Of a DNA stretch of 64,000 nucleotides, positions 4,591 to 44,504 are shown piece by piece; within the stretch, counting starts at the first letter, position 1; every line of letters begins with the position of its first letter. Source of the DNA: Pristiophorus japonicus (taxonomy: Eukaryota); NCBI RefSeq assembly GCF_044704955.1, contig NC_091986.1, forward strand, positions 181,598,001-181,662,000, read 5' to 3'. A model generated the notes under the pieces. It had not been told where the DNA came from. It worked only from the letters and a program-made list of their open reading frames with translations, and ran no database searches. Both the position numbers and the translations under genes were made by a program.

Positions 4591-4828
4591 TGTAATGTAC
4601 GCACCTGTGGGTGGCTTAACCAGTCACATGATGTTCACCAGACTCAATAAAACACCAGCCAGTTGGGTTTAGGGAATCCACGATGAGGCATGCGGTTTTG
4701 AGCCGAGTGAATGAACTGGTAATGTGTAGTGTGATTGTTAAACTTTTGTTAATAAACCAACTTGTTTTTAACAGCAAAGTGTTGCTATGAATGCTTAAGC
4801 AAAGAACCTATGAAGCAAACACATTACA
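4591..4828 (+). mobile_element. solo LTR (Gypsy-like, family 1)
   Basis: TGTAATGT...ACATTACA termini, AATAAA inside, 5-bp TSD ggctg at 4586-4590 and 4829-4833. Homologous to 43599-43873. Confidence 0.85.
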
Positions 4829-5939: not shown

Positions 5940-7585
5940 TGGATGAAATAGAAGGGGCAGAAAAAAATAGGTGCTGTAGTCATATATGTCAGGGACAGGC
6001 GTGAGATAACTGAAGTTGATACTGGATGATTGTCTAAGCTCCACAGAGAACTACTCTGGATAAAAATCTCTAATGTGAAAAAATACAAGCTAACACTGTG
6101 GGTATGCTACATAACTCCAGTTCAACACAAGAAGGAGGACTGTCTGCTTTAGGAAGAGATAAGAAAGGTATATGAGAACAGGGGAGTTATTTTAATGGGA
6201 GATTTCAACCAACCAAATGGAAATGAAGAAAATCCAAGGGCTTTATGGTCAGAGTTGGTGCAATGCACAATCGCTTCATGAATCAGTGGGGATAATTCTG
6301 ACTTTGGGGGAATAGTATAAAACAGGCTATATATTAGGCCGTAATTTGAGGTCCCTATGGATGTGTACGACGTGTGCACGCGTCTGTTGGGGCCACGCAA
6401 GTTCCGGGGTTAGGCATGCAGCCGCAGGAAAAAGGCCTCCGCAGGCAGAGAGTTGGGTTATTTGCCCAACTTCTGCCCAGCGAATGCCCATGAAATTCTT
6501 ACGCCTGGGAAAAGCAAGCGTAAGGCCTGCTTTCAACAGCATAAGACTTTTAAAGAACAGAAACACAATATTTTTCAATAATTTATACATTTAAAAACCT
6601 GTGAAATAAAGTAAGTTTATTATTAGTCCCTTTAAATTATGTAAATGTATTTTTCAAAAAATTATATTTTGTTTAAAATATTTAATTAAATGGCACTTTG
6701 TTTAATTTTAAATGTGCAATGTTTATTTTTTATTTATTTGAAGTGCATGCGTATTTTTGGAGGTATTCCCATTCATGCTTTTGAGGATTCCATACATACG
6801 GAATCCCCATAAGTATGAATGAGGATCACCTTTCTTTCATTGGTTGGACCAGCCCACGTGATCCCAGTGGCGCTAGCAAACCGCCTGCACCCCTGGGATA
6901 CATGGGCCTCTACCCACGGTTACCAGGAGAGGCCCAGGAGCGCAAGTCTCCATGGATCCAGGACCATCAGGTAAGAGTGTAGATTTTTTGCTGGTCAGGT
7001 AGCCTCTGACCGCAAATTCAGGGCCAGTTCAGCCAACCATTACATATCTCGGCTGAATCAATATCGCCTGGGTTACGCTATCACCCCACGTCAAAATCAT
7101 TGCCTGTGTGTAAGGAAGCCACAAGCGGCAGCGCTCACGTTAACCTGATATCTCTAAATGACCCATACACCCTACAGGAAATAGAAGTTGTAGCACACCT
7201 GGGCCTGGGGACAGTGAGCACAGAATGATCAAGTTTAACATGATCTGGGATTAATTTATATCAAAAACCAGGAACCAGGTTTATGCTTTTAAAAGGCCCA
7301 AATTCAAACAGGTGAGGGAAGAATTCAAAGAGATTGGAGGAGAATATTTGTCAGCATTTTAGTAAAGGTCAAAGAATAATGCTGGCTGTGCAGGATAGGT
7401 ACGTACTTAAGATCAGCAAACTTAGACTAAACAAGTGTGAGCCTAAATGGATTAATAAATTAAACCTGACGTGGAGGAAAAGTGTTGAGGGAAAGGGGTT
7501 CACTGGGATAAGTATAGGATCACATGGAAACATGTCAAAGGATTGATTAGAAAGACAAAGAGTGAAAAAATATAGCTGCAGAGAT
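5940..7585 (+). pseudogene. old CR1 ORF2 AP-endonuclease region (interrupted by a MITE)
   Basis: Decayed APE motifs: RRGRK..AVVIYVRD (about 5950-6000), LWIKI...VCY, ILMGDFN (about 6190), SEH for SDH (about 7215). Confidence 0.6.
6337..7025. mobile_element. non-autonomous Harbinger-type TIR element, family C
   Basis: TIRs ggccgtaatttgaggtc ... gaccgcaaattcagggcc, left flank tta, AT-rich core. cacgtgatcccag motif shared with 45008-45737. Confidence 0.7.
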
Positions 7586-8071: not shown

Positions 8072-10567
8072 AGTTGGGGAGGAGTTAAACTAATATGGCA
8101 GGGGAATGGGAACCAATGCAGGGAGATAGAGGGAAACAAAAAGGAGACAAAAGCAAAAGACAAAAAGGAGATGAGTAAAAGTGGAGGGCAGAGAAACCCA
8201 AGATAAAAAACAAAAAGGACCACTGAATATAAAGGGGCTGCAGGAGGGGTCAAAACTAAAAATCATGGTTTAAAAACTAGTATTAAAACACTCTACCTAA
8301 ACGCACGCAGCATTCGAAATAAAGTAAATGAGTTCACAGCTCAAATCATTACAAATGGGTATGATTTGATGGCCATTACAGAAACGTGGTTGCAGGGGGG
8401 CCAAGACTGGGAATTAAACATACAGGGGTATCTGACGATTCGGAAAGATAGACAAGAAGGGAAAGGAGGTGGGAAAATAGAAGATTGGGAAAATTTTAAA
8501 CGACAGCAAAGAATGACTAAGAAAGCAATAAAGAAAGGAAAGATAGATTACGAAGGTAAACTTGCGCAAAACATAAAAACGGATAGTAAAAGCTTTTACA
8601 GAGATATAAAATGGAAAAGAGTGACTAAAGTAAATGTCCCTTAGAAGATGAGAAGGGGGATTTAATAATGGGAAATGTGGAAATGGCTGAGACCTTAAAT
8701 AATTATTTTGCTTCGGTCTTCACAGTGGAAGACACAAAAACCATGCCAAAAATTGCTGGTCACAGGAATGTGGGAAGGGAGGACCTTGAGATAATCACTA
8801 TCACTAGGGAGGTAGTGCTGGACAGGCTAATGGGACTCAAGGTAGACAAGTCCCCTGGTCATGATGAAATGCATCCAGGGTATTAAAAGAGATGGCGGAA
8901 GTTATAGCAGATGCATTCGTTATAATCTACCAAAAGTCTCTGGACTCTGGGGTGGTACCATCGGATTGGAAAACAGCTAATGTAACGCCTCTGTTTAAAA
9001 AAGGGGGCAGACAAAAGGCAGGTAACTATAGGCCGGTTAGTTTAACATCTGTAGTGGGGAAAATGCTTGAAACTATCATTAAGGAAGAAATAGCGGGACA
9101 CCTAGATAGGAATAGTGCAATCAAGCATACGCAGCATGGATTCATGAAGAGGAAATCATGTTTAACTAATTTACTGGAATTCTTTGAGGATATAACGAGC
9201 ATGGTGGATAGAGGTGTACTGATGGATGTGGTGTATTTAGATTTTCAAAAGGCATTCGATAAGGTGCCACACAAAAGGTTACTGAAGAAGATAAGGGTAC
9301 GCGGAGTCAGAGGAAATGTATTAGCATGGATAGAGAATTGGCTGGCGAACAGAATGCAGAGAGTCGGGATAAATGGGTCCTTTTCAGGTTGGAAATCGGT
9401 GGTTAGTGGTGTGCCACAGGGATCGGTGCTGGGACCACAACTGTTTACAATATACATAGATGACCTGGAAGAGGGGACAGAGTGTAGTGTAACAAAATTT
9501 GCAGGTGACACAAAGATTAGTGGGAAAGCGGGTTGTGCTGAGGACACAGAAAAGCTGCAAAGAGATTTAGATAGGTTAAGCGAATGGGCTAAGGTTTGGC
9601 AGATGGAATACAATGTCGGAAAATGTGAGGTCATCCACCTTGGGAAAAAAAACAGTAAAAGGGAATATTATTTGAATGGGGAGAAATTACAACATGCTGT
9701 GGTGCAGAGGGACCTGGGGGTCCTTGTGCATGAAACTCTTTTGAGTTTACCTGAAAAAAAAACAAACATTAAACCGTGCCACCCGCCTGGGTGACACAGC
9801 AGACATTTTCAAGGCCCCTTTTTTTTTCCTTTTTTTGTGTTTTTTTTTTTAGGGTCCTTGTGCATGAATCCCAAAAAAGTTACTTTGCAGGTGCAGCAGG
9901 TAATCAGGAAGGCGAATGGAATGTTGCCCTTCATTGCAAGAAGGATGGAGTACAAAAGAAGGGAGGTCCTTCTGCAACTGTATAGGGTATTGGTGAGGCT
10001 GCACCTGGAGTACTGCGTGCAGTTTTGGTCACCTTACTGAAGGAAGGATATACTAGCTTTGGAGGGGATAGAGAGACGATTCACGAGGCTGATTCCGGAG
10101 ATGAGGGGGTTACCTTATGATGATAGATTGAGTAGACTGGGTCTTTACTCGTTGGAGTACAGAAGGATGAGGAGGGATCTTATAGAAACATTTAAAATAA
10201 TGAAAGGGATAGACAAGATTGAGGCAGAGAGGTTGTTTCCACTGGTCGGGGAGACTAGAACTAGGGGGCACAACCTCAAAATACGGGGGAGCCAATTTAA
10301 AACCGAGTGAGAAGGAATTTCTTCTCCCAGAGGGTTGTGAATCTGTGGAATTCTCTGCCCAAGGAAGCAGTTGAGGCTAGCTCATTGAATGTATTCAAGT
10401 CACAGATAGATAGATTTTTAACCAATAAGGGAATTAAGGGTTACGGGGAGCGGGCGGGTAAGTGGAGCTGAGTCCACGGCCAGGTCAGCCATGATCTTGT
10501 TGAATGGCGGAGCAGGCTCGAGGGGCTAGATGGCCTACTCCTGTTCCTAATTCTTATGTTCTTATTA
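8072..10567 (+). mobile_element. young CR1 LINE (ORF1 end, ORF2 with internal deletion, 3' tail)
   Basis: GEELN* ORF1 end, LYLNARSIRNK and ITETW (APE), RT motifs NYRPVSLTS, LDFQKAFD, GVPQGSVLGP, KFAGDTK, and a ttcttatg tail. Frameshifts and stops present. Confidence 0.95.
9735..9851 (-). mobile_element. 5'-truncated 3' tail of a Tx1/L1-like LINE inserted in CR1
   Basis: 17-bp TSD gggtccttgtgcatgaa (9718-9734 and 9852-9868). The sequence is homologous to 43882-44026. Confidence 0.85.
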
Positions 10568-16388: not shown

Positions 16389-19300
16389 ATGGGCATTATT
16401 GGAATTCTGTAGAGATTCGGGGATGGCGAGGATTGGGCAGATTTTATCGACCGCCTGGATCAATAATTTGTGGCCAACAAAATAGAGGGAGAGGCTGACG
16501 CAGTTCGGCGCAGGGCGGTTTTCCTCATCGTTTGTGGTCCAAAAATTTATGGTCTCATGAAGAATATTCACTTGCCTTTACATCCAACTGACAAAGAATA
16601 TGGGGATTTGTGTTCTTTTGTGCCTGATCATCTTAAGCCAAAAGAGGGGATCATCATCTCACGCTATCGCTTCTACACGCATGTTCATGCTGAGGGCCAG
16701 GATGTGCCGAGATTCGTCGCCGACCTGTGACGTCTTGCTGAGCTGTGTAAGTTTGGGAACGTATTGGAAGACATGCTGCGAGATTTCTTCGTGAAAGGCA
16801 TCAACCATAAAGTGATTCTTCGGAAGTTATTGGCCGAAGAGAAGCTGGACTTGAGAAAGGCCATCGCGACTGCCCAGGCATGCATGAATACTGATGATAA
16901 TTTGAGGCAGATATCATCGAAGAGTCGGAGCTCCACGGCAAGTACTGTAAACAAGATTGTGTCATCGTTTGGCAGAGCTTCCTCTGGCAGGGCCTACTCG
17001 ACTGCTTATGTGAAACCTGTAGCTGCTCAATGTCTGCCAACTGGTACAAATTCGATTTCACCCTGTTGGCGTTGTAGGGGCAATCATTGGCCTCATCAGT
17101 GTCAGTTTAAACAGTACTCTTGTAATGGCTGTTCGAAAGTGGGGCATCTTCAGGGAACGTGCCCACAACTGAGCAAGCGTGCTGCAGCTCATCACATTGC
17201 TGATGATGACCAGTCCAGTGCTGGCCCAGACACACAATCCGAGGAGGAAGTGTATGGTCTGTATTCATTCTTAGGAAGGAGCCAGCAGATAATCGTTAAT
17301 GTGAAGTTGAATGGCGTGCCTGTATCAATGGAGCTGGACACGGGTGCGAGTCTGTCAATACTGAGCCAAAGAACATTCGACAAGCTGTGGGACACTGAGG
17401 CTGTGAAGCCTAAGCTGAGTCCAATCAATGCCAACTTGCGTACTTACACTAAGGAACTCATACCGGCGATTGGCAGTGCAGTAATCAAGGTGTCATATGA
17501 TGGTGTGGTTCATGATCTGCCATTATGGATTGTCCCAGGTAATGGTCCAATGCTGTTCGACAGGAATTGGCTCGAGAAAATTGAGTGGAATTGGAATGAT
17601 ATCAAAGCGTTGTCATCGGTGGATGACATTTCGTGTGCTCAAGTGTTGAAGACGTTTCCTTCTTTGTTTGAACCGGATATTGGTAATTTTACTTGAGCCA
17701 AGGTGCAGATTCACCTGGATTTTGATGCAAGGCCTGTCTATCATAAAGCTCAGTCTGTTCCCTACATGATGAGGGAGAAGGTTTAAATTGAGCTTGACAG
17801 ACTCCAACTTGAAGGGGTCATATCACCGGTTGAGTTTAACGAGTGGGCCAGTCCTATTGTTCCTGTGTTGAAGAGTGATGGTACTGTCAGGATTTATAGA
17901 GACTACAAGGTTACGATTAACCGACTTTCGAAACAGGATCAGTATCCGTTACCGAAGGCTGATGACCTGTTCGCCAAGCTAGCTGGTGGAAAGTCGTTCA
18001 CTAAACTGGATCTGACATCAGCCTATATGACACAGGATCTTGTCGACACTTCGAAGAAACTCACCTGCATTAACACCGCTAAAGGACTGTTTGTCTACAA
18101 CAGGTGTCCTTTTGGAATTCGTTCGGCTGCAGCCATATTTCAGAGGAATATGGAGAATCTATTGAAGTCCATTCCTAGAACTGTCATATTTCAAGATGAC
18201 ATTCTGGTCACAGGTCATAACACTACTGAACATCTGAACAATCTTGAAAAAGTCTTACATCATCTGGACAAAGTGGGATTAAGGCTGAAACATTTGAAAT
18301 GTGTCTTCATGGCATCTGAAGTTGAATTCCTGGGGAGGAAGATTGCTGCTGATGGCATCAGGTCTACTGATTCGAAAACTAAGGCCATCAAAAATGCACC
18401 CAGGCCTCAGAATGTGACGGAGCTGCATTCATTCCTTGGGCTACTTAACTACTTTGGTAATTTCCTATCCAGATTGAGCACTTTGTTAGAGCCACTGCAC
18501 GTGCTACTCAGAAAAGGTGACAACTGGGTTTGGGGTGTGTTTCAAGATAGAGCCTTTGAGAAAGCTAAGAATCTGCTCTGTTCAAACAAGTTGCTTGTTC
18601 ATTATGATCCATGTAAGCATCTTGTATTGGCCTGTGATGCTTCATCATATGGGATTGGCTGTGTACTCCAACAAGCAAATGAGTCTGGTAAGCTACAACC
18701 TGTTGCGTATGCTTCGAGAAGTTTATCAAAGGCATATCCAGAGGTGGGCATTGACATTGTCTGCCTATGATTATGTTATTCATCATAGATCTGGCACTGA
18801 GAATTGTGCCGATGCACTGAGTCGTCTGCCGTTGCCCACACCTGAGGTGGAGATGCCTCAACCTGCAGATCTACTGTTAGTAATGGATGCTTTTGAGAGT
18901 GAAGGAACTCCTGTCACTGTTCAACAAGTTAGGATCTGGACCAGCCATGACCCTATTTTATCAGTTGTGAAACGTTGTATCCTCAGTGGTCATTTGTCTG
19001 CAATACCTATGCAAATGTGTGATGAGACCAAACCTTACAACCATCGCAAAGATGAACTGTCCATTCAGTCAGATTGTTTACTGTGAGGTAATCGTGATGT
19101 TATGCCGAAGAAAGGTAGAGAAAAATTTGTATGTGAACTGCATAGCACTCATCCTGGTATTGTCAGGATGAAAACCATTGCTAGGGCTCATGTATGGTGG
19201 CCTGGAATTGACTCTGATCTGGAATCATGTGTGCATCAGTGCAACACTTGCATGCAGCTAAGTAAAGCACCAGCGGAATCGCCACTGAGTCTTTGGTCGT

Positions 19301-31694: not shown

Positions 31695-34600
31695 AAACAT
31701 AGAAACATAGAGACTTACAGCGTAGAAGGAGGCCATTTCGGCCCATTGTGTCCGCGCTGGCCGACAAAGAGCCGCACGGCCCTTGGTCAACAGCCCTATA
31801 GGTTACATATAAACCTATGATCAATGGCGGAAAAGCAAAGAGCACCCAGCCCAACTAGTCCACCTCACACAACTGCGACACCCCTGACACTGAAACATTC
31901 TACACTCCACCCTAACCAGAGCCATGTGATTTCCGGGGAGAGGCAAAAACCAGATACAAACCCAGACCAATTTAGGGAGAAAAAATCTGGGAAAATTCCT
32001 CTCTGACCCATCCAGACGATCAAAACTAGTCCAGGAGATCACCCTGGCCGTATTCTATTCCCTGCAGTACTTACCATTATATCCAACAAAAGGTCATCCA
32101 GTCTAATCCCAATTACCAGCTCTAGGTCTGTAACCCTGCAGGTAACTGCATTTTAAGTGCCCATCCAACCATCTCTTAAAAGTGGTGAGGGTTTCTGCAT
32201 CCACCACTCTTCCAGGCAGCGAGTTCCAGATCCCCACAACCCTCTGCATAGAGAAACTTCCCCTCAAATCCCCTCTAAACCTTAAAACTATGTCCCCTCA
32301 TAATAGACCCCTCCACCAATGGATATAGACCCTTACTATCCACTATGTCCAGGCCCCTCAATATTTTGTACACCTCAATGAGGTCTCCTCTCAACCTCCT
32401 CTGTTCCAATGAGAACAAACCCAGCCTATCTAATCTGTCCTCATAACTAAGATTCTCCATTCCAGGCAGCATCCTAGTAAATCTCCTCTGCACCCTCTCT
32501 AGTGCAATCACGTCCTTCCTATAAATATAGTGACCAGAACTGCACTCCAGCTATGGCCTAACCAAAGTATTATACAATTTAAGCATAACCTCCCTGCTCT
32601 TATATTCTATGCCTCGGCCAATAAAGGCAAGCATTCCGTATGCCTTCTTAGCCACCTTATCCACCTGGCTTGCTACTTTCAGGAATCTGTGGACAAGCAC
32701 TCCAAGGTCCCTTTGTTCATCTACACTATTAAGTGGCCTACCACTTAATATGTATACCCTTTCCTTATTAGCCCTCCCAAAGTGCATCACCTCACACTTC
32801 TCTGAATTAAATTCCATTTGCCACTGCTCTGCCCACCTGACCAGTAGATTGATATCCTCCAGCAGCCCAAGACTTTCCTCTTCATTATCAACCACACAGC
32901 CAATTTTATTGTTGTCTGCAAACTTCTTAATCATACTCCCTATATTCAAATCTAAATCGTTGATATATCATTAACGAGGCTGACTTGCTTCTATGCCAAA
33001 AAAGGATAAGTTAACAGGTGTTCCAATGAAGGACCTAAAATTCGAGATCCTGACCTACATCCTGAAGGGTGGAAGATGCCTGTGCGTGGATTTTTTTAAC
33101 GTGTGGTGGCCGTTGCACACCAGCCACCACACAGGCTTGACAGAGCTAGGTCTTGGTCCAGTGGCAAGGATTAGCCAAGACCACTGGAGGCCTGCTCTGC
33201 CGCAGGGATCTAGTGCACACACATATCGCAGTGTAGGCTGGTCCGTGCTGCCCCTGGGCCCCTGGCCCCGAAGTCATGCCTCTCCTGGGCCCCGATCATG
33301 TCCCTCTATAATCTCTCACTGCTTCTTTGCCCCGATCTCGCCGTTTCTGCTGTACCTGCCCACGCTCCAATCACCAACCAGGACCTTGATGACGTCACTC
33401 TTCGCTTCCGTCGCAGCTCGCGCTGCTCCCTGGAGTAGTATGCCTCCGCACTGCTTCCAAGGCCTCCGCGCGCCACTCCTGCCGCTGGTGTTCTCCCGTT
33501 GATATATACCACAAAAAGCAAGGGACCCAGTACTGAGCCCTGCAGAGCCCCACTAGAAACATCCTTCCAGTCACAAAAACATCCATCAATCATTACCCTT
33601 TGCTTCCGACCTCCAAGCTAATTTTGGATCCAACTTGCCACTTTGCCACGTATCCCATGGGCTTTAACCTTCATGACCAGTCTACCATGTGGGACCTTAT
33701 CAAAAGCCTTGCTAAAGTCCATATATACTACATCGTACGCACTACCCTCATCGACCCTCTTGGTTACCTCCTCAAAAAATTCAACCCGATTAGTCAAACA
33801 TGATCTTACCTTAACAAATCCGTGCTGACTGTCCCTAATTAATCCTTCCCTTTCCAAATGCAGATTTATCCTGTCTTTCAGGATTTTTTCCAATAATTTT
33901 GGCACCACTAAGGTTAGGCTGACAGGCCTGTAATTACTCAAACTATCCCTTTCTCCCTTCTTAAACAAGGGTGCTACATTAGCAGTCCTCCAATCCTCCG
34001 GCACCATGCCCAGATCCAAAGAGGACTGGAAAATGATGGTCAAGGCCTCTGCTATTTCCTCTTTTACTTCGTTCAACAGCCTGGGATGCATTTCATCTGG
34101 GCCTGAGGACTTATCTACTTTCAAAGCTGCTAAACCCCTCAATACTTCCTCTCTCACTATATTTATTTCATCCAGAATATCACATTCCTCCTCGATAGCA
34201 GTATCTGCATTACCCCTTTCCTTCGTGAAAACAGATGCAAAGTATTCGTTAAGAACCCTACCAACATCTTCCGCCTCCACACAAAGATTACCCTCATGGT
34301 CTCTAATAGGCCCTATCTTTTCTTTAGTTACCCGCTTACTCTTAAAATATTTATAGAACATCTTGAGGTTTTCCTTAATTTTACTGGCCAAGAATTTCTC
34401 GTGCTCTCTCTTAGCATTCCTAATAGCCTTTTTAATTTTGCCTCTTAACTTTCTATATTCCTCTAAAGATTCTAAAGTATTTAGCCGTTGGTATATGACT
34501 TAAGCTTCCCTTTTTTCTTTAATCCTCCCCTGTAAGTCCCGAGACATCCAGGGGGCTCTAGAATTATTTTTTCCGGCCTTTTTCTTTAAGGACACATGTT

Positions 34601-35901: not shown

Positions 35902-38900
35902 TTCTTTATTCATTCACAGGATGTGGGCATCGCTAGCAGAGCCAGCATTTATTGTCCATCCCTAATTGTTCTTGAGAAGGTGCTGGTGAGCCGCTTTCTT
36001 GATGGACTGCAGTCCATGCAGTGAAGGTACTCCCACAGGAGATGAAGGTTCAGCGATATATTTCCAAATCAAGATGGTGTGAGCTTGGAGAACTTGAAGG
36101 TGGAAATGTTCCCATTCGCCTGCTGCCCTTGTCCTTCGAGGTGGTAGAGGTTGTGGGTTTGGGAGGTGCTTCCGAAAAAGCCTTGGCGAGTTGCTGCAGT
36201 GCATTTTGTCGATGGAATACACCGCAGCCACGGTGCGCCGGTGGTGGAACATAAGAACATAAGAATTAGGAACAGGAGTAGGCCATCTAGCCCCTCGAGT
36301 CTGCCCCGCCATTCAATAAGATCATGGCTGATCTGGTCGTGGACTCAGCTCCACTTACCCGCCCTCTCCCCGTAACCCTTAATTCCCTTATTGGTTAAAA
36401 ATCTATCTATCTTTGACTTGAAAACATTCAATGAGCTAGCCTCAACTGCTTCCTTGGGCAGAGAATTCCACAGATCACAACCCTCTGGGAGAATACATTT
36501 TTTCTCAACTCGGTTTTAAATTGGCTCCTCTGTATTTTGAGCCTGTGCCCCCTAGTTCTAGTCTCCCCCACCAATGGAAACAACCTCTCTGCCTCTATCT
36601 TGTCTATCCCTTTCATGATTTTAAATGTTTCTATAAGATCACCCCTCATCCTTCTGAACTCTAGTCTACTCAATCTATCATCATAAGGTAACCCCCTCAT
36701 TTCTGGAATCAGCCTAGTGAATTATCTCTGTACTCCTTCCAAAGCTAGTATATCCTTCCTTAAGTAAGGTGACCCAAACTGCACGCAGTACTCCAGGTGC
36801 GGCCTTACCAATACCTTATACAGTTGCAGCAAGACCTCCCTGCTTTTGTGCTCCATCCCTTTCGCAATGAAGGCCAATATTCCATTTGCCTTCCTGATTA
36901 CCTGCTGCACCTGCAAACTAACCTTTTGGGATTCATGCACAAGGACCCCCAGGTCCCTTTGCACCACAGCATGTTGTAATTTCTCCCCATTCAAATAATA
37001 TTCCCTTTTACTGTTTTTTTTCCCAAGGTGGATGACCTCACACTTTCCGACATTGTATTCCATCTGCCAAACCTTAGCCCATTCGCTTAACCTATCCAAA
37101 TCTCCTTGCAGTCTCTCTGAGTCCTCTACACAATCCGCTTTCCCACTAATCTTAGTGTCATCTGCAAATTTTGTTGCACTACACTCTGTCCCCTCTTCTA
37201 GGTCATCTATGTATATTGTAAACAGTTGTGGTCCCAGCACTGATCCCTGTGGCACACCACTAACCACTGATTTCCAACCGGAAAAGGACCCATTTATCCC
37301 GACTCTCTGCTTTCTGTTCACCAGCCAATTCTCTATCCATGCTAATACATTTCCTCTGACTCCGCGTACCTTTATCTTCTGTAGTAACCTTTTGTGTGGC
37401 ACCTTATCGAATGCCTTTTGGAAATCTAAATACACCACATCCATCGGTACACCTCTATCCACCATGCTCATTATATCCTCAAAGAATTCCAGTAAGTTAG
37501 TTCAACATGATTTCCCTTTCATGAATCCATGCTGCGTCTGCTTGATTGCACTATTCCTATCCAGATGTCCCGCTATTTCTTCCTTAATGATAGTTTCAAG
37601 CATTTTCCCCACTACAGATGTTAAACTAACCGGCCTATAGTTACCTGCCTTTTGCCTGCCCCCTTTTTTAAACAGAGGCGTTACATTAGCTGTTCTCCAA
37701 TCCGTTGGTACCTCCCCAGAGTCCAGAGAATTTTGGTAGATTATAACGAATGCATCTGCTATAACTTCAGCCATCTCTTTTAATACCCTGGGATGTATTT
37801 CATCAGGACCAGGGGACTTATCTACCTTCAGTCCCATTAGCCTGTCCAGCACTACTCCCCTAGTGATAGTGATTGTCTCAAGGTCCTCTCTTCCCACATT
37901 CCTGTGGCCTGCAAATTTTGGCATTGTTTTTGTGTCTTCCACAGTGAAGACGGAAGCAAAATAATTGTTTAAGGTCTCAGCCATTTCCACATTTCCCATT
38001 ATTAAATCTCCCTTCTCATCTTCTAAGGGACCAACATTTACTTTAGTCACTCTCTTCCGTTTTATGTATCGGTAAAAGCTTTTACTATCTGTTTTTATGT
38101 TTTGCGCAAGTTTACTTTCGTAATCTATCTTTCCTTTCTTTATTGCTTTCTTAGTCATTCTTTGCTGTCGTTTAAAATTTTCCCAATCTTCTAGTTTCCC
38201 ACTAACCTTGGCCACCTTATACGCATTGGTTTTTAATTTGATACTCTCCTTTATTTCCTTGGTTATCCACGGCTGGTTATCACTTCTCTTTCACTGGAAT
38301 ATTTTTTTTTTGCGCACTATGAAAGAGCTCCTTAAAAGTCCTCCACTGTTCCTCAATTGTGCCACCGTTTAGTCCTTGTTTCCAGTCTACTTTAGCCAAC
38401 TCTGCCCTCATCCCACTGTAGTCCCCTTTGTTTAAGCATAGTACCCTCATTTCTGATACAACTTCCTCATCCTCAATCTGTATTACAAATTCAACCATAT
38501 TGTGATCACTCATTCCGAGAGAATCTTTTATGAGGAGATCGTTTATTTTTCCTGTCTCGTTACACAGGACCAGATCCAAGATGCTTGCTCCCTTGTAGGT
38601 TCTGTTACATACTGTTCTAAGAAACAGTCCCGTATGCATTCTATGAATTCCTCATCCAGGCTACCCCCTGCGATTTGATTTGACCAATCGATATGTAGGT
38701 TGGTCAAATCAACGGCCTACACCAGTTGTTTATGAAGCCTCCCCGCCCACTTACCGATTGATGACTCCCCTGCGTCCCGCTGATTCTCACCCGGTACAGA
38801 GTCCGGCTCCAGCCTGAGCTCGTCTCTGGAGGGAGTGAATGTTTAAGGCGGTGGACGGGGTGCCAATCAAGCGAGCTGCTTTGTCCTGGATGGTGTCGAG

Positions 38901-43598: not shown

Positions 43599-43873
43599 TG
43601 TAATGTATTTGCTTCATGGGTTCTTTGCTGAAGAATTCATAGCAACACATTGCTATTAAGAACTGGTTGGTTTATTAGTAAAAGATTTAACAATCACACT
43701 GCACATTACCAGTTCATCCACCAGGCTCACAACCACCTGCCTCAGTGTGGATCCCCTGAATCCAACTGGCTGGGGTTTCATTGAGTCTTCTGAACGTTAC
43801 GTGATTGGCTAAACCACTCCCAACTCAATAGTTCGACCAATCTGTGAGCATGCTCACAGGTGCGTACATTACA
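43599..43873 (-). mobile_element. solo LTR (family 1)
   Basis: TGTAATGT...ACATTACA, reverse homologue of 4591-4828, flanks atgtg/aagtg (near-TSD). Confidence 0.85.
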
Positions 43874-43881
43874 AAGTGGAA

Positions 43882-43979
43882 ACTCTTTTAGAGTCTACCT
43901 GCAAAACATAAACATTAAACTGTGCCACCTGACCTGGGTGACACACCAGACATTTACAAGGCCCTTTTTTCCTTTTTTT

Positions 43980-44027
<48 letters not shown>

Positions 44028-44296
44028 GGCACTAAAATCACAATTTCTCCGGTGCCCCCTATAAAAGGGAAGGGGACACTAAAAGCACCGGCAATTAAAA
44101 CAAATTAAACTTTAAAATGTAAAATCAAATTAAAATTTGGTTGCCGGGCGTGATGATGCACTCCAGTCCCTCCGGTGCCCACCTCTCGCGGAAGGCCGCG
44201 AGCGTACCGGTGGACACCGCGTGCTCCATCTCCAAGGACACCCTGGACCGGATGTAAGAGCGGAAGAGAGGCAGGCAGTCAGGTTGAACGACCCCC
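43882..44296 (-). mobile_element. Tx1/L1-like LINE 3' end
   Basis: ORF2 end DCLPLFRSYIRSRVSLEMEHAVSTGTLAAFRERWAP, stop at 44125, internal poly(A) at about 43972-44026, 13-bp TSD ttacaaagtggaa (43869-43881 and 44297-44309). Confidence 0.85.
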
Positions 44297-44504
44297 TTAC
44301 AAAGTGGAAATGATCCTGGGTGTGTGCCCAGGTGCACTGGATCATCGCTACACAGCAGATATCAAGAAACTGGGCAGATCAAAGTGCATGGCTGTAAAGG
44401 AACCCACCCAATTTTTCCTTTAATTTAAAGGGAAGGAAAATCAAGCAGTTTTCCAATATTCCCTGCACCCAGGTAATCCAGGGAAATCTCTCCTGTAATC
44501 TGTA

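Follow-up and report, generated by a model that had tools for sequence, protein, structure and literature searches.

A young Tx1-clade LINE of Pristiophorus japonicus that targets CR1-type LINEs, with a fixed 3' end probably set by read-through RNA

Canonical L1 elements end in a terminal poly(A) and nick their target at TTTT/AA. In the window analyzed here, i.e., the whole stretch of 64,000 nucleotides from contig NC_091986.1 of Pristiophorus japonicus (genome size, 5.9 Gb), a LINE copy on the minus strand continues beyond an A-rich tract into a hairpin and is followed by TTC, which raises the question of what fixes such an end and what selects such a target. From this copy and one other, the first-pass annotation had proposed a Tx1 lineage with a structured, nonpolyadenylated 3' end and a TTC cleavage preference. 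We consider it probable that the copy is an off-target, 5'-truncated member of a young, sequence-specific Tx1 LINE family, the end base of which would be fixed because the RNA likely reads into the flanking target and pairs with the nicked DNA primer. The features of the window are as follows.

43869..43881, minus: target-site duplication, 3' copy (TTCCACTTTGTAA), starting with TTC
43882..44296, minus: Tx1-clade LINE copy, 5' truncated, 415 bp, off-target
43882..43896, minus: terminal hairpin (ACTC/GAGT core, loop of 4 to 6 nt) with the invariant end GAGT
43882..43964, minus: fixed tail 3' of the A-tract, 83 nt, terminating in ACTCTAAAAGAGT
43921..43945, minus: inner hairpin of the tail, with pairs kept across haplotypes and A-U to C-G in older subfamilies
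43965..44026, minus: A-rich tract, internal and templated, 62 nt (A45-CC-A7-GG-A6)
44027..44124, minus: 3'UTR upstream of the A-tract, 98 nt
44049-44091, minus: candidate for a GC-rich hairpin in the 3'UTR (z -2.1 and -1.1)
44125..44295, minus: 3' part of ORF2, the last 56 codons and the stop codon TGA (ending at 44125)
44297..44309, minus: target-site duplication, 5' copy, 13 bp (TTCCACTTTGTAA)
9735..9851, minus: second Tx1-clade copy, 117 bp, on-target in a CR1-type LINE, with the end AAACTCAAAAGAGT
9718-9734 and 9852-9868: duplications of the second copy, 17 bp, first bases TTC
8469..10565, plus: host CR1-type LINE (RT domain)
36932..36945, plus: empty target site in an uninterrupted CR1 copy (36251-38202, minus strand)
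32686..32699, plus: empty homologous site in a second CR1 family (target of the older subfamily S2)

The stop codon, 3'UTR, tail, and 13-bp duplication described by the first-pass annotation were all re-derived, although the duplication is readable as 12, 13, or 14 bp because of a T-run in the flank; the same terminus at 9735 was recovered as well, together with its duplication. A stretch of about 275 bp with TGTAA/TTACA borders, resembling a solo LTR, lies at 43599-43873 (minus), and a similar one lies at 4611-4828; the Tx1 duplication straddles the 5' edge of the former. Elsewhere in the window, a broken LTR-type pol region (16731-19086, plus) was recognized from matches to aspartyl protease, RT, and RNase H, each in a frame of its own.

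The 415-bp copy corresponds to positions 6778-7191 of a natural full-length copy (L066:556-7746; 7,191 bp) whose ORF1 and ORF2 encode 699 and 1,299 aa, and the 56 codons left in the window are the C terminus of this ORF2. Exo_endo_phos (APE endonuclease) and RVT_1 matches were found in ORF2, and the catalytic motifs of the endonuclease align to L1-EN. Two further matches fell below the curated cutoffs, namely, a C-terminal zf-RVT in ORF2 and a zf-CCHC (zinc knuckle; E 0.0044) in ORF1. ORF2 is 49% identical over its full length to that of Xenopus Tx1L and grouped with Tx1L and turtle relatives (SH-aLRT, 96) in a quick tree with 31 rows, a midpoint root, and no L1 outgroup; of the 120 listed hits, 29 were included, chosen mainly by full length or name. 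Judged by domains and tree, the family is a member of the Tx1 clade, as had been proposed; indeed, its copies carry target-site duplications and 5' truncations, as expected of a Tx1-clade LINE. Among 16 young ORF2s, mutual identity is 99.1%. An assembly artifact was ruled out, since array units differ at family-shared positions and the 3' tail is also carried by contigs of another organism (X2-X4, one study). A metagenome scan yielded distant relatives only, with identities of 24 to 41%. Three full-length units (L065, L067, and L094) have internal ORF1 deletions of 168, 1,152, and 1,207 bp. Besides, turtle predicted proteins P0001-P0005 outscored full-length matches at partial coverage; they may derive from tandem truncated Tx1 copies, a hint of arrays in turtles.

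The end pattern, which requires the hairpin core, matched 16,151 times genome-wide versus 3 times for a reversed control and is therefore not due to chance, which extends the earlier two-copy basis; array units are counted singly here, independent loci being fewer, and ends lacking the core escape the count. Among 30 loci found by sequence upstream of the A-tract, including the window copy, 29 run past the A-tract into the tail, and 1 (L046) ends in A's. Likewise, 89 of the 90 units in L031-L100 continue beyond the A-tract (88 recognized automatically plus L075, which is outside the pattern and visibly tailed). These counts support the proposed fixed, nonpolyadenylated end. The A-tract has a median length of 56 nt with 84% A, and because other copies show interruptions at recurrent positions in it, it is templated and internal; what had been described as a long poly(A) exists as an A-rich tract but is not a tail. 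Terminal poly(A) and the TTTT/AA nick of canonical L1 were absent, with L046 and L137 as rare exceptions, and the ends are the unique GAGT, lacking the terminal short tandem repeat that is the criterion for the CR1/L2/RTE type. The exceptional copy L046 (L077:7412-7656) ends in A21 with an 11- to 14-bp duplication at a TT/AAAT site; priming took place inside its A-tract, with either the family's enzyme or one from an L1. In two older-looking units (L187 and L215), AAAAGAG comes nearly immediately after the A-tract, without the hairpin tail; these may be a short-tailed subtype, and in L187 AAAAGAG is also part of a spacer.

The tail contains two hairpins, and its folding is modest in the window copy (z -1.7 versus shuffles) and stronger in the second copy (z -2.9). 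The inner hairpin, with an 8-bp stem, is kept in 31 young tails with one-sided changes only, and in the older subfamilies (1,838 pattern matches) one of its A-U pairs is replaced by C-G, a two-sided change. Stem covariation, which had been suggested as a check, is seen in this one pair and not in the terminal hairpin, which had no two-sided change when changes were counted by script; RNAalifold covered the inner hairpin. In the young family, the ACTC/GAGT core of the terminal hairpin is nearly invariant, its loop is 4 to 6 nt long, and it has purines able to pair with the target TT. Its outer bases in S1 are mostly T's, which are unable to pair with the target TT, and in S2 it is reduced to CTC/GAG (3 bp, 6- to 7-nt loop), some ends lacking even that. 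The proposal that target bases extend the terminal stem holds for the youngest subfamily but fails in the older ones, which keep 4 or 3 terminal pairs with no extension. Because it shrinks to 3 to 4 bp in the older subfamilies, the terminal hairpin is probably not the key signal, and the inner hairpin would be a better, putative candidate for recognition by ORF2. An Rfam search gave no match near a gathering score. Two other roles of the tail were considered and rejected: a splice acceptor (pyrimidine tract plus YAG), whose motif is missing from the older subfamilies, and a fold-back onto the 14-base duplication, for which one fold reached z -3.25 but was absent in S1 and S2 (p 0.03 to 0.09 in six of seven young haplotypes and 0.29 in the seventh).

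The base after the end is T in 99.8% of the 16,151 matches (not T in 33, by subtraction), and TTC follows directly in 15,427 (95.5%), in line with the TTC bias noted from two copies. As a cleavage preference, TTC nevertheless understates the specificity: a single CR1 site, TTCATGCAC, directly follows 11,892 ends (73.6%). This site had been missed although the copy at 9735 sits in it; the copy at 43869 belongs to the off-target minority. Other classes comprise TTCA followed by a base other than T (1,570 ends), TTC by other than A (538), T by other than T (452, mostly TA-starting), and TT by other than C (239). Off-target sites retain just the first 1 to 4 bases of the main target, and the duplications of the family are typically 13 to 16 bp. 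TTC is what is left of a complete sequence specificity directed at a single CR1-type LINE site. Insertion at the main target is antisense to CR1 ORF2 and falls where the DLGVLVHE codons end and the codon for S follows. Indeed, the host in the window is interrupted after its DLGVLV motif, between the His-Glu and Ser codons, and the CR1 copy at 36251-38202, with the empty site, is 90 to 95% identical to this host. The host has an RT with a DLGV motif, a C-terminal RGDLIE motif, and a short-repeat tail; we take DLGV and RGDLIE to be marks of CR1 and assigned the host on this basis, rather than by a tree. The share of ends at the CR1 site exceeds the threshold for target-specific Tx1 families given in PMC4494074, i.e., more than 20% of flanks of one kind.

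The register of the junctions is tight: of 15,666 junctions that begin with TT, no more than 239 (1.5%) can carry an extra T. We further characterized a sample stratified by junction class and drawn from the places listed first on two contigs (130 first units, of which 102 were resolved, 78 of them off-target, and 28 were unresolved). A T at the 3' junction with no counterpart in the 5' duplication copy was found at 7 of 9 resolved TC-starting sites, at 3 of 54 TT-starting sites, and at 0 of 13 TA-starting sites; every extra base is a T, and its occurrence varies with the second base of the target. Of 11 further GAGTTC loci, 3 were clear TC sites without an extra T, 4 were variants of the CR1 site, 3 were ambiguous, and 1 was unresolved. 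When the numbers are scaled to class size, we arrive at an estimate of approximately 60 to 90 TC sites with the extra T versus 20 to 35 without, that is, about two-thirds or more of TC sites versus at most 1.5% of TT sites. A single extra T would arise because the primer GA pairs with the RNA UC one base along, leaving one U to copy, and since TA sites are spared, untemplated addition is an unlikely source. Besides, at L137 the element end is followed by 7 target-like bases (TTCAAGC) and then by poly(A), and the copy has a separate duplication, at a T/A site of the L1 type. The S2 subfamily precedes TCTG, and its off-target sites start with TCTG or TG.

Judging from these DNA junctions, read-through of the RNA is likely. 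The endonuclease would nick the CR1 sense strand at GAA/TCC, and the transcript, not polyadenylated at the element end, would continue through at least UUC (up to 7 nt in one case). The freed 3' end (...GAA) would then anneal to the read-through RNA and fix the start of reverse transcription, with the internal A-tract as a putative substitute for a tail.

Several observations count against this reading: endonuclease preference alone can yield TTC, TA-starting sites hold the register with only one possible pair, L137 is the only polyadenylated read-through locus genome-wide, and none of 30 TTCA-class loci has an extra T at TCA, though pairing would favor it. In the account closest to the earlier reading of the locus, the precision comes from protein only: the RNA stops at GAGU or close to it, the start is set by ORF2 bound to the terminal hairpin, T-Y-C-A is recognized by the endonuclease alone, and the extra T's are untemplated. 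We regard this as unlikely. The Tx1L endonuclease is sequence specific in vitro (PMC1950540), the off-target sites prefer T-Y-C-A-like sequence (A at -1 in 34 of 78), and the CTC/GAG core and the string AAAAGAGT, which persists across subfamilies, are kept in nearly all examined subfamily ends with variable loop length. Such an account is, however, difficult to reconcile with the reduced or missing S2 stem and its lack of two-sided changes, with an extra base that is always T and tied to the second target base, and with L137, which shows target bases within a retroposed RNA. As for the origin of the tail, an ancient 3' transduction had also been suggested; in the form of a stretch past a true poly(A), carried without function, we find it highly improbable. 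The order of stop codon, UTR, A-tract, and extra sequence fits a fixed transduction, as do the L046 copy that terminates in the A-tract at an L1-type site and the two older-looking units with AAAAGAG almost directly after the A-tract. Against it, subfamilies approximately 5% apart preserve the inner hairpin, with changes on one or on both sides of its pairs, and a new terminal poly(A), normally expected, is absent; furthermore, no donor for the tail was found, and a derivation from the CR1 flank was rejected, as its 9- to 10-nt matches arise in 6 to 10% of random stretches, i.e., at chance level.

A third possibility concerns how read-through could guide target choice, for which the older subfamilies are informative. 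In a second CR1 family, the S2 target, TCTGTGGACAAGCA, occupies the homologous codon; the two targets share 9 of 14 bases and differ at the primer-terminal positions +2, +3, and +4. In the ORF2 tree, TCTG- and TTCA-targeting copies are split by a branch 0.004 long (support, 96/94), and the end branches are longest in S2 (approximately 0.03), 0.02 in S1, and mostly 0.002 to 0.007 in the young family, from which we read an order with S2 first, on branch lengths and not on a root. No fixed endonuclease residue difference was found between 5 S1 and 10 S2 ORF2s. The nearest to fixed, residue 67, is S in 5 of 5 S1 and C in 9 of 10 S2, with S67 also present in the S2-type copies L351, L353, and L342; by alignment, it adjoins a loop that we take to contact DNA in L1. 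Thus, the lineage moved between two CR1 families without a fixed endonuclease change among these 5 versus 10 ORF2s. It is conceivable, if doubtful, that the endonuclease reads features common to both CR1 families, that the read-through bases choose between them, and that one stray insertion re-aimed the lineage. Target choice of a vertebrate LINE might then be inherited outside its own sequence, with read-through bases as the guide and a switch made without new endonuclease specificity, a notion that we likewise regard as doubtful. The homology of the targets, the positions of their differences, the tree split, and the lack of a fixed endonuclease difference argue for it; on the other side, the sample is small, residues 328, 606, and 920 are fixed differences outside the endonuclease and residue 67 lies beside the putative DNA-contact loop, array units are possibly chimeric or moved in trans, and an off-target array without TTC was hit repeatedly by many haplotypes, so that a single pair is at times enough.

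Members of the family commonly form head-to-tail arrays. Eleven loci have a truncated first unit next to the host together with a neighboring unit, and in 7 of them both begin at the same base; array units nevertheless differ at family-shared 3' positions. The array without TTC (L185 and L189; G000:C1, about 122.074-122.078 Mb) has a 13-base spacer, TAAAAGAGAAATT, repeated at least 12 times, and older-looking units at its 3' end; new copies seem to be drawn to a resident one there, with no CR1 site. At L068, haplotypes of at least 18 units of approximately 550 bp repeat with a period of 8, pointing to later unequal exchange. In addition, target-site arrays contain tRNA sequences joined to element 3' ends: L229:1260-1500 (minus) has two tRNA-like genes and only the last 10 element bases, and L017:960-1500 (minus) has an intron-bearing tRNA-Tyr-like stretch and tRNA-Ile, as well as a tRNA-Lys unit. 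Val, Ile, and Lys were called by ARAGORN, and the Asp and Tyr labels of tRNA-like stretches are presumptive. These joints are likely template switches.

Tx1L of Xenopus laevis (ORF2, YTX2_XENLA, P0006) has two ORFs and an APE endonuclease, as here; its target is the piggyBac-type DNA transposon Tx1D, whereas that of the shark family is a LINE RT gene, and the endonuclease hairpin loop of the shark family is three residues shorter. PMC4494074 describes Tx1L as inserting site specifically into another mobile element and the crocodilian Tx1-Mar families, SINEU-3, Kibi, and Koshi as target-specific Tx1 members, which share with the shark family tandem copies around a duplication. The targets listed in that text (Mariner, Harbinger, LTR elements, snRNA genes, and microsatellites) include no LINE, and SINEUs are described there with poly(A) tails, which the shark family lacks. 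Koshi uses (TTC)n (PMC4494074), whereas here TTC starts a unique 14-bp site; identity with Koshi was rejected, as the flanks are CR1 or unique sequence and not (TTC)n repeats. In R1Bm, downstream target sequence is needed for accurate starts (PMC7265360), and in R2 priming, 4 template bases must pair with the primer (PMC11371274). In both systems, the primer pairs with target bases located downstream on the RNA, which makes the start accurate, as shown experimentally there and as read from junctions here; both belong to other clades and have rDNA targets. A monocot L1 lineage has a conserved, structured 3' end with a covarying hairpin but is from plants, and the available part of its description (PMC3747384) mentions neither target specificity nor an internal A-tract. 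A distant fish-type Tx1 (L380:6370-6430, one contig) ends after AATAAA without poly(A), straight into a TC repeat; therefore, taillessness alone is not new. In searches of the open literature, we found no LINE-targeting Tx1 and no account of this 3' end, and read-through priming was found reported for R1 and R2 but not for the Tx1 clade; the supplements of PMC4494074 may bear on novelty. What appears new here is the junction evidence for read-through and the comparison of the S1 and S2 enzymes.

The family combines many intact young copies with near single-base 3' precision in a vertebrate APE-type LINE, and its multicopy target lies in the RT gene of another retrotransposon. With thousands of off-target junctions and a dated switch, the shares of the endonuclease and of RNA-DNA pairing in target choice become testable, which bears on retrotransposon-based gene insertion tools and on the disabling of one mobile element by another. 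If target choice is indeed carried by the read-through bases, a lineage would be re-aimable by changing them.
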